Positions 18,153-18,454 of a stretch of 21,093 nt of DNA are shown here, in pieces. Source of the DNA: a virus (taxonomy: Duplodnaviria; Heunggongvirae; Uroviricota; Caudoviricetes); the IMG/VR virus record IMGVR_UViG_2579778952_000011, positions 1 to 21,093 of that record; one strand, written 5' to 3'. Numbering within the stretch: position 1 is the first letter of the stretch; every line of letters starts with the position of its first letter. Position numbers and translations under genes: made by a program. The notes below the pieces were generated by a model, which did no database searches, was not told the origin of the DNA, and saw nothing but the letters and a program-made list of their open reading frames with translations.

Positions 18153-18365
18153 ATGGTCGGAGGGAATACCCGAAGGCCGGATGTGGAAAGGCCCCGGAAA
18201 ACATATCTGTTTAACCGAGGCCCTAACCGCATTACCTTGACAAGTGAAAGGTTAGCGCCTCTCCGGAAAAGGAGCAAGTGCTATGTCGCAAAAATCGCTT
18301 ACGGCCATCACGTTCTGCGTGACGGCAATCCTCATCATCTGGATGCTGCACGGTTCGCTGTGTGA
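18153..18365 (+). CDS. mok: mok-like overlapping reading frame of the hok locus
   Basis: A 70-aa ORF starting upstream of hok and overlapping it in another frame, which is the same geometry as mok in hok/sok loci. Confidence 0.45.
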   Translation: MVGGNTRRPDVERPRKTYLFNRGPNRITLTSERLAPLRKRSKCYVAKIAYGHHVLRDGNPHHLDAARFAV

Positions 18366-18423
18366 AATACGGATGAGTTTCTGGGGAGCGGAGTTTGCGG
18401 CGTTCTTACAGTGTAAGCAGTAA
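18283..18423 (+). CDS. hok: Hok/Gef-family type I toxin (small membrane peptide)
   Basis: A 46-aa ORF (MSQKSLTAITFCVTAILIIWMLHGSLCEIRMSFWGAEFAAFLQCKQ) with GGAG 8 nt upstream, a single TM helix and the Hok-family SLCEIR...AAF motif. It is below the 60-aa cut-off of the ORF track. Confidence 0.8.
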   Translation: MSQKSLTAITFCVTAILIIWMLHGSLCEIRMSFWGAEFAAFLQCKQ

Positions 18424-18432
18424 GGAAACCGC

Positions 18433-18454
18433 GACGGGGGAGCAATCCCCCGTC
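18433..18454 (+). other. Perfect 9-bp stem / GCAA tetraloop hairpin at the 3' end of hok
   Basis: gacggggga-gcaa-tcccccgtc. Probably a 3' stabilising or folding element of the hok mRNA; no T-run follows it. Confidence 0.5.

Follow-up and report, generated by a model that had tools for sequence, protein, structure and literature searches.

Sequence anatomy of a probable hok/sok-type toxin-antitoxin cassette carried by a P88-like prophage of Escherichia coli

In the R1 hok/mok/sok locus, the full-length hok mRNA is closed by pairing of tac with fbi and open when tac pairs with ucb, the truncated mRNA is shielded by a terminal stem-loop, and mok translation has to cover at least the stretch that begins at the GAGG box and reaches the hok Shine-Dalgarno sequence (PMC9841398). 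The hokW-sokW locus of the Sp5/933W Stx2 prophage brings lysis forward and doubles Sp5 release after mitomycin C (PMC8621323). A catalog of 32,532 hok loci, with a four-fold enrichment in prophages, is given in a preprint that dates from 2025-26 (Escalera-Maurer et al., bioRxiv 10.1101/2025.08.07.668861); its authors state that Mok, Sok and mRNA structure were deliberately left unanalysed.

The locus described here lies in a 21,093-nucleotide stretch of Caudoviricetes DNA (IMG/VR record IMGVR_UViG_2579778952_000011), referred to below as the window. A preliminary description, made from the letters of the window, had proposed a hok/sok-type type I toxin-antitoxin locus as prophage cargo, and the analysis supports this: the locus is very probably a self-contained hok/sok-type type I toxin-antitoxin cassette of about 390 bp, a moron carried as right-end cargo of a P88-like (P2 family) prophage between pdxB and flk.

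The cassette is an ordinary known element, already annotated, catalogued and assayed. Of 5426 complete E. coli genomes, about 1750 contain the identical 408 bp, and RefSeq labels the product "Hok/Gef family protein" (WP_000078916.1). The records of P88-like and Stx phages name the 46-aa gene "MokW-like host killing", a label that derives from PHROG family naming and not from orthology. The locus had been called unannotated, which holds only for the open reading frame track used in the preliminary description, as RefSeq, phage records and Table S2 of the preprint all list the gene. In that table the exact peptide of the window appears as 72_1621 (construct LRP137), a member of cluster 72, a high-abundance cluster; the Stx-phage variant 72_1589 corresponds to one of the homologues used here (L004). 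Among 45 constructs, only 19_179, 60_1482 and 69_1540 were non-toxic, and 72_1621 is not one of these (bioRxiv 10.1101/2025.08.07.668861). Toxicity of the exact peptide is taken from the literature, by its listing in that assay panel.

The Hok peptide and the extent of the module

Homologous modules were collected by exact-protein look-up of divergent homologues and by matches to an invariant 29-nt coding motif, which gave 138 loci; two motif matches in Firmicutes assemblies were left out as probable contamination. The alignment used for most comparisons (A3) contained 43 modules with pairwise identities of 96.5% or less.

The hok reading frame encodes MSQKSLTAITFCVTAILIIWMLHGSLCEIRMSFWGAEFAAFLQCKQ, in which residues 6-23 are hydrophobic, SLCEIR occupies residues 25-30 and AAF residues 39-41. 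The Shine-Dalgarno sequence, the hydrophobic helix stretch and the SLCEIR...AAF signature pointed out in the preliminary description are all in the sequence, and the GGAG core of the Shine-Dalgarno sequence was kept in 42 of the 43 homologues. Pfam HOK_GEF (PF01848) matched the 46-aa peptide with 29.9 bits (cut-off 22, E 4.1e-7) over profile positions 5-42 of 42, and PHROGs placed it in phrog_251 with 80.6 bits. Residues C12, T14, L26, C27, E28 and E37 match columns conserved in R1 Hok and HokA-E, and all residues conserved in the family (C16, T18, L30, C31, E32 and E41 of the family logo) are present. A lack of Hok-family similarity on alignment had been named beforehand as grounds for abandoning the assignment; the similarity was found. 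Judged from profile and residue matches, the peptide is a member of the Hok/Gef toxin family.

Alignment to the reference peptides of Table S2 (bioRxiv 10.1101/2025.08.07.668861) gave 43% identity to HokA and 28% each to R1 Hok and Sp5-type HokW. The score against the NCBIfam HokA equivalog model NF007290 was 34 bits, below the cut-off of 89, so the peptide does not qualify as an orthologue of HokA; with NF007279, the model for the Hok subfamily, it scored 21.6, below the cut-off of 73. By these measures the window Hok is part of a cluster distinct from HokA. The hok frame was intact in 82 of 83 unique modules, and dN/dS was below 1 in all 872 pairs compared (median 0.26), which indicates purifying selection.

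Conservation among the homologues was high from about 18125 to about 18490 and dropped on either side, so the module passes the right edge of the interval 18153-18454 reported in the preliminary description. That interval is part of the unit, but the promoter, from about 18102, and the end of fbi at 18488 fall outside it. The module is estimated to span about 18102..18488, or roughly 390 bp. Upstream, ogr (Pfam Ogr_Delta) ends at 18092. Three more cargo ORFs lie downstream of hok, homology to the K-12 pdxB-flk gap (host DNA) restarts only at 19977, and attR is 1.5 kb away. The cassette had been placed between ogr and attR; it is downstream of ogr, but it does not abut attR. It is cargo of a P2-like E. 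coli prophage and sits close to the prophage end.

The setting varied among homologues. In Salmonella the module was found 3' of gpU-gpD-ogr and in other genomes 3' of tail-fibre genes, sometimes as a tandem pair. In P2-type, Stx-type and other prophages its place was at the prophage end or close to it, and in genomes other than that of the window it is the last gene before host DNA; fewer than 400 nt of the fetched locus lay downstream of the motif in 39 of 140 motif matches. Unrelated temperate phages carry the module, and the hok block was also found on ETEC plasmids and in prophage remnants.

Leader RNA, refolding elements and Sok

The features of the cassette are collected in Table 1. The hok -10 element (TAGATT, TAGAAT or TAAATT) was found 6 nt 5' of GGGTGCC in P2-type, Stx-type and Salmonella contexts. 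In an alignment with the validated hokW locus, the predicted -10 in the window falls opposite TAGAAT. A consensus promoter scan of both strands reported no sigma-70 site; the hok promoter was absent from its output because 8 of 12 consensus positions is below the threshold. Both promoters proposed here match the consensus at only 6-8 of 12 positions and are put forward on conservation and homology.

Table 1. Features of the cassette, in window positions.
Feature	Position	Strand	Basis or remark
Predicted hok promoter: -35 TTGCCG (18102..18107), 17-nt spacer, -10 TAGATT (18125..18130)	18102..18130	+	Sequence, conservation
Predicted full-length hok mRNA, about 352 nt	18137..18488	+	Rfam start, conservation, fold; predicted ends
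tac element, GGGUGCCUUUCG	18137..18148	+	Partner is fbi in the full-length fold and ucb in the fold without fbi
70-codon "mok-like" frame	18153..18365	+	Open in the window allele; judged non-functional
ucb-like box, GAAAGGCCCC	18186..18195	+	Alternative tac partner; in the closed form helps sequester the GAGG box
Predicted Sok RNA, about 56 nt: 5' tail, hairpin GGGCCUCGG..CCGGGGCC, UUU	18186..18241	-	Folds, conservation; ends and expression predicted
GAGGC box	18217..18221	+	Nearly invariant; partner in both the truncated fold and the Rfam consensus is GCCUC 18257..18261
Predicted Sok promoter: -35 TTGCTC (18277..18272), 17-nt spacer, -10 TAACCT (18254..18249)	18249..18277	-	Conservation, hokW homology
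GCCUC, dcb-like (18257..18261), overlapping anti-SD CUCC (18261..18264)	18257..18264	+	Folds, alignment
hok Shine-Dalgarno, AGGAG	18270..18274	+	8 nt 5' of ATG
hok CDS, 46 aa	18283..18423	+	Pfam PF01848, phrog_251, RefSeq WP_000078916.1, preprint cluster 72
3' stem-loop, GACGGGGGA/GCAA/UCCCCCGUC, 9 bp	18433..18454	+	Fold, covariation
fbi element, CGAUAAGGCAUCC	18476..18488	+	Complementary to tac; outside the interval first reported

No Rfam family matched at the gathering threshold. An Rfam hok/sok search of the region had been suggested in the preliminary description, and a search of the 551-nt region alone matched RF01794 ("sok") over its whole length on the hok strand, at 18137..18296, with E 3.9e-9 and a score of 45.8 bits, below the gathering value of 59. 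The E value and the full-length coverage of the model indicate homology. The RF01794 consensus starts with GGGUGC, like the hokW leader (primer YO-351), and stops at the hok AUG; with these limits the model represents the leader of the hok mRNA, to part of which Sok is complementary.

The fold of the predicted mRNA (18137..18490) had a minimum free energy of -151.3 kcal/mol (z = -5.6 against shuffles), with the 5' and 3' ends paired. This closure of tac with fbi comprises 12 pairs, with 91.7% of cells paired and two-sided compensatory changes at three consecutive pairs (columns 42/401, UA 24, CG 10, UG 6; 43/400, CG 25, GC 16; 44/399, GC 30, AU 9). RNAalifold on the 43-module alignment recovered the closure independently and added a fourth adjacent compensatory pair. 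For the closed form as a whole, 94% of cells were paired in the 43 homologues, compared with 42-53% when the partners were slid by 1-3 columns. The fbi element occupies nucleotides 22-34 beyond the GCAA hairpin and is conserved and covarying. That hairpin had been noted in the preliminary description as a stable GCAA-tetraloop structure following hok; it is present, but it is not the end of the unit, which continues to the end of fbi.

With fbi removed, the minimum free energy fold re-paired tac with GAAAGGCCCC and the GAGGC box with GCCUC. In this open form 93.2% of cells were paired in the 43 homologues, compared with 37-64% for slid partners, and the Rfam consensus structure agrees with it. 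The tac/ucb helix had 93.6% of cells paired (columns 42/87, UA 29, CG 9; 43/86, CG 24, GC 11), and helix 2, formed with the GCCUC/anti-SD segment, had 80.8% of cells paired in the closed form and 92.6% in the open form. Columns 42 and 43 of tac covary with both ucb and fbi. Such covariation with two alternative partners is, on the alignment, the signature of an R1-type switch from tac/fbi to tac/ucb. The 3' stem-loop had 99.2% of cells paired and two-sided compensatory changes in five of nine pairs and, by analogy with R1, is likely the protective end of the 3'-trimmed mRNA. The idea that refolding frees the hok Shine-Dalgarno sequence, with the GAGGC box stripping off the anti-SD, was rejected: in the folding calculations the probability that this sequence is unpaired was 0.20 before and 0.23 after 3' trimming.

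A cis-encoded Sok is predicted to run from about 18241 to about 18186 on the minus strand. Of the 43 modules, 39 had TAACCT as the Sok -10 and three had the R1-like TATCCT, and the most conserved non-coding 10-mer (18250..18259, 0.99) holds it. This element aligns with the AGGTTAGC box of the validated hokW-sokW locus, which is the complement of the sokW -10 and, judged from primer YO-421 (PMC8621323) against the wild type, was replaced in the promoter-less sokW construct. All 39 unique Sok variants folded as a single-stranded variable tail of about 17-20 nt, then a strong hairpin, then a short U-run, with upper stems that differ. Few stretches within the module are less conserved than the region of the 5' tail, and the U-tract is only 3 nt long. 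Indels in the upper stem left RNAalifold with only a weak consensus for the Sok alignment, and the folds of individual sequences were more informative.

Proposed mechanism, role and the mok question

The elements described above suggest the following course of events. A weak constitutive promoter would supply a stable hok mRNA of about 352 nt, locked shut in its initial form by pairing of its 5' tac with its 3' fbi. Slow trimming of the 3' end to the GCAA stem-loop would strip off fbi, allowing tac to capture ucb and the leader to refold, with GAGGC paired to GCCUC and the Sok target exposed. Sok, an antisense RNA of about 56 nt with a short lifetime, would come from a strong and conserved promoter within the leader. 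As long as Sok is being made, the duplex would be destroyed, probably by RNase III. Once Sok synthesis stops, through loss of the element, phage-imposed shut-off of host transcription or prophage induction, trimmed mRNA would build up and the 46-aa Hok would be made, enter the inner membrane and kill or arrest the cell.

Stabilisation of the element (addiction) is judged the most likely role, and the addiction or abortive-infection roles suggested in the preliminary description are both plausible. The same device could instead serve chiefly in abortive infection, as reported for R1 hok/sok against phage T4, or as a lysis helper like hokW-sokW of Sp5. The effect of hokW-sokW on lysis and phage release (PMC8621323) and the presence of the module in unrelated temperate phages are consistent with such a role. 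However, with only 28% identity to Sp5-type HokW, function cannot be transferred from HokW, PADLOC defence models gave no match, and the preprint reports no enrichment of hok near defence systems (bioRxiv 10.1101/2025.08.07.668861). The persistence of the module on ETEC plasmids and in prophage remnants fits stabilisation, and we consider a role other than stabilisation possible but doubtful.

Much less probable is a canonical three-gene hok/mok/sok locus in which the 70-codon frame of the window, whole or shortened, acts as a working mok on which hok translation depends. The preliminary description had noted this mok-like frame overlapping hok, and it is open in the window allele from before 18153 to 18365, as it is in a minority of homologues. 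Its markers also recur, with the ATG in 11 and a GTG at -100 in 12 of the 83 unique modules. The nearly invariant GAGG box is followed 10 nt later by an in-frame AUU in eight modules, including the window, where AUU is the sole possible start at that place. Against a working mok, ATG 18153, 16 nt away from the predicted mRNA 5' end, is without a Shine-Dalgarno sequence, and Pfam and NCBIfam gave no match for the product of the frame. The frame is broken by stops 13-43 nt before the hok ATG in P88, at 95% DNA identity, as well as in Stx phage, Klebsiella and most Salmonella homologues.

The wider comparison also argued against mok. In R1 and hokW the mok Shine-Dalgarno sequence stands where the GAGGC box is found here, but in the window no canonical start codon follows the box. 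In all three frames of the 83 unique modules, no canonical start was detected 3-15 nt after the GAGG box; the same script found the hokW positive control, with an ATG 8 nt after GAGG that opens 70 codons in frame with hokW. An in-frame stop was present 9-54 nt 5' of the hok ATG in every module (83/83). In a test independent of start codons, 49 of 81 modules had a stop in each of the three frames between the GAGG box and the hok Shine-Dalgarno sequence. An upstream ORF beginning with GTG at about 18183 was considered as a substitute for mok and rejected, as 23 of 83 modules lack it and its end, where it is present, is scattered between -70 and +134. A working mok is thus very unlikely. From the homologues compared, the subfamily is without a conserved mok leader ORF, and the 70-codon frame is seemingly a chance open frame of the window allele. 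Of the hok/mok/sok architecture first proposed, hok was borne out and a Sok RNA is predicted, but mok was not borne out.

The intact hok gene, the purifying selection on it and the lack of a conserved mok together suggest that the subfamily is functional and mok-less, with Hok probably translated from its own strong AGGAG site. A broader proposal is that the 46-aa "MSQK...FLQCK" clusters 72 and 79 are a natural mok-less branch of hok/sok that has kept Sok and the tac/ucb/GAGG/dcb/fbi switch, with Sok acting through RNA structure and decay alone and the GAGG box serving a structural purpose; we hold this to be evenly balanced. To our knowledge, no mok-less hok/sok variant of the textbook mechanism has been described.

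Least probable of all is that the mok-less locus is a decaying, silent remnant, unexpressed and non-toxic like chromosomal hok loci of K-12: K-12 hokA is disrupted by IS150, the homologues L008 and L109 are without promoter and tac, and the window fbi has a unique C-to-U change, but this change merely turns a G-C into a G-U pair, the window retains the promoter, tac, ucb, fbi and the Sok -10, hok is intact and under purifying selection (82/83 modules; 872/872 pairs), and the exact peptide is in the toxicity panel and not among the three non-toxic constructs (bioRxiv 10.1101/2025.08.07.668861).

The locus carries little weight as a discovery, since thousands of genomes have the gene annotated, the exact peptide was already assayed and enrichment of hok in prophages is published. 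The anatomy is revised here: the unit spans about 18102 to 18488, the hairpin is read as a protective stem-loop inside it, attR stands well apart from the unit, and Sok now has a predicted position that can be tested. The sole mildly novel point is that a widespread Hok subfamily appears to have a complete RNA refolding switch without a conserved mok. If confirmed, the leader peptide would be dispensable in part of the hok family, and the small cassette would be convenient for studying antisense control without translational coupling.

Comparison with known systems

The locus shares with R1 hok/mok/sok the order tac, ucb, GAGG box, dcb, hok, terminal 3' stem-loop and fbi, the closed tac/fbi and open tac/ucb forms of the R1 mechanism (PMC9841398), and, by prediction, an antisense promoter flanked by the target region and the hok Shine-Dalgarno sequence. 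It differs in its Hok, which is 28% identical to that of R1 and has 46 instead of 52 residues, in having no conserved mok, in its own strong AGGAG site and in an Rfam score below the gathering value.

Like hokW-sokW of the Sp5/933W Stx2 prophage (PMC8621323), the locus is a prophage-borne hok/sok locus, and the two leaders can be aligned at the 5' GGGUGC, the ucb box, the AGGTTAGC box and the 3' stem-loop. HokW, in contrast, is another paralogue of 51 aa with 28% identity, HokD/HokC-like (35_712), and VT2-Sakai has an in-frame 70-codon mokW of which no orthologue was found here. The reading of the locus as the published hokW was rejected, Sp5 HokW being this different 51-aa paralogue. With peptide 72_1621 of preprint cluster 72 the protein is identical, and the regulatory anatomy given here is an addition to the preprint.

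K-12 hokA encodes the closest classical Hok (43%), gave the best NCBIfam match and shares the C-terminal AAFL.C.K motif, but K-12 has an annotated mokA, and its hokA carries the IS150 insertion mentioned above. Type I toxin-antitoxin systems without a leader ORF exist, such as tisB/istR-1, in which the toxin is read from its own ribosome-binding site. In systems of that kind the antisense RNA acts away from the ribosome-binding site, and a structured, processed mRNA is the active form. The toxin family of tisB/istR-1 is unrelated to Hok and its antitoxin is arranged differently; the likeness offers a lead on how a mok-less hok may be controlled.

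The prophage right end and its cargo

From window 19977 onward, the sequence is again homologous to the intergenic region between pdxB and flk of K-12; this position marks the right junction of the prophage, which lies within the 98-bp pdxB-flk gap. A strong, terminator-like palindrome, AAAGCCCGTGAAAACGGGCTTT, is located upstream of 19977 (window 19870-19977). The stretch between hok and the prophage end contains three more cargo ORFs (see table), none of which was matched by PADLOC.

The block that begins with ogr and ends with the gene named 'TagO' was also present on 142-148 kb ETEC plasmids, which were 100% identical to the window over the searched 408 bp around hok. 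Its neighbors on these plasmids include a truncated gpD, a group II intron reverse transcriptase and an integrase. The plasmid block looks like the stranded right end of a P2-type prophage.

Coordinates of the cargo genes, the plasmid block and the variant hok modules (L-numbers denote homologous loci from other genomes)
Feature	Sequence	Coordinates	Description
Three cargo ORFs, hok to prophage end	window	18601-19848	
First ORF after hok	window		zinc-ribbon and transmembrane protein; phrog_6586, function unknown
Second ORF after hok	window		93 aa, secreted-looking; repeated RLSCYD motif
Third ORF after hok	window		RefSeq name 'type VI secretion system-associated protein TagO'
ogr-hok-Zn-ribbon-hypothetical-'TagO' block	L002, NZ_CP025917.1 (ETEC plasmid p120899_146)	3293-5756	counterpart of window 17385-19848
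Tandem hok pair	L011 (Salmonella)	3001-3141, 3491-3631	
Tandem hok pair	L012 (Salmonella)	3001-3141, 3495-3635	
hok, promoter -10 and tac replaced	L008/L009/L010 (Salmonella)	~2835-3231	
hok, promoter -10 and tac replaced	L109	9682-10047	

Variation among hok modules

The window carries its own allele of fbi, the 3' partner of tac in the closed form of hok mRNA, reading GGCAUCC (window 18486) vs. GGCACC in the other aligned modules. The change converts one tac/fbi G-C pair to G-U, the sole G-U at this pair in the 42 modules that have letters at it, and might render the closed form slightly less stable.

Tandem hok modules in two Salmonella loci are spaced by about 490 bp, and their predicted Sok-target patches are unlike one another, as expected if the paralogs diverged in a way that avoids antisense cross-talk. 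Four other loci, three of them from Salmonella, retain an intact 46-codon hok and fbi box. Because both tac and the -10 box of the promoter have given way to unrelated sequence, these copies are probably transcriptionally silent or locked. The enterobacterial hok motif was also detected in two Firmicutes assemblies, Planococcaceae MAG UBA3378 (L015) and Vagococcus sp. WN89Y (L017), where assembly contamination is the most likely source, over real transfer. In one of the two, masked bases (a run of N) immediately precede the motif.

The GCAA hairpin on the minus strand

In the minus-strand orientation (18455-18432), the GCAA hairpin is followed on its 3' side by a T-rich stretch and was terminator-like in the scan. 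The window has no convergent gene downstream of it. In some phages the hairpin may also serve as a terminator in both directions; P88, a related P2-family phage, has, unlike the window, a minus-strand gene at the corresponding place.
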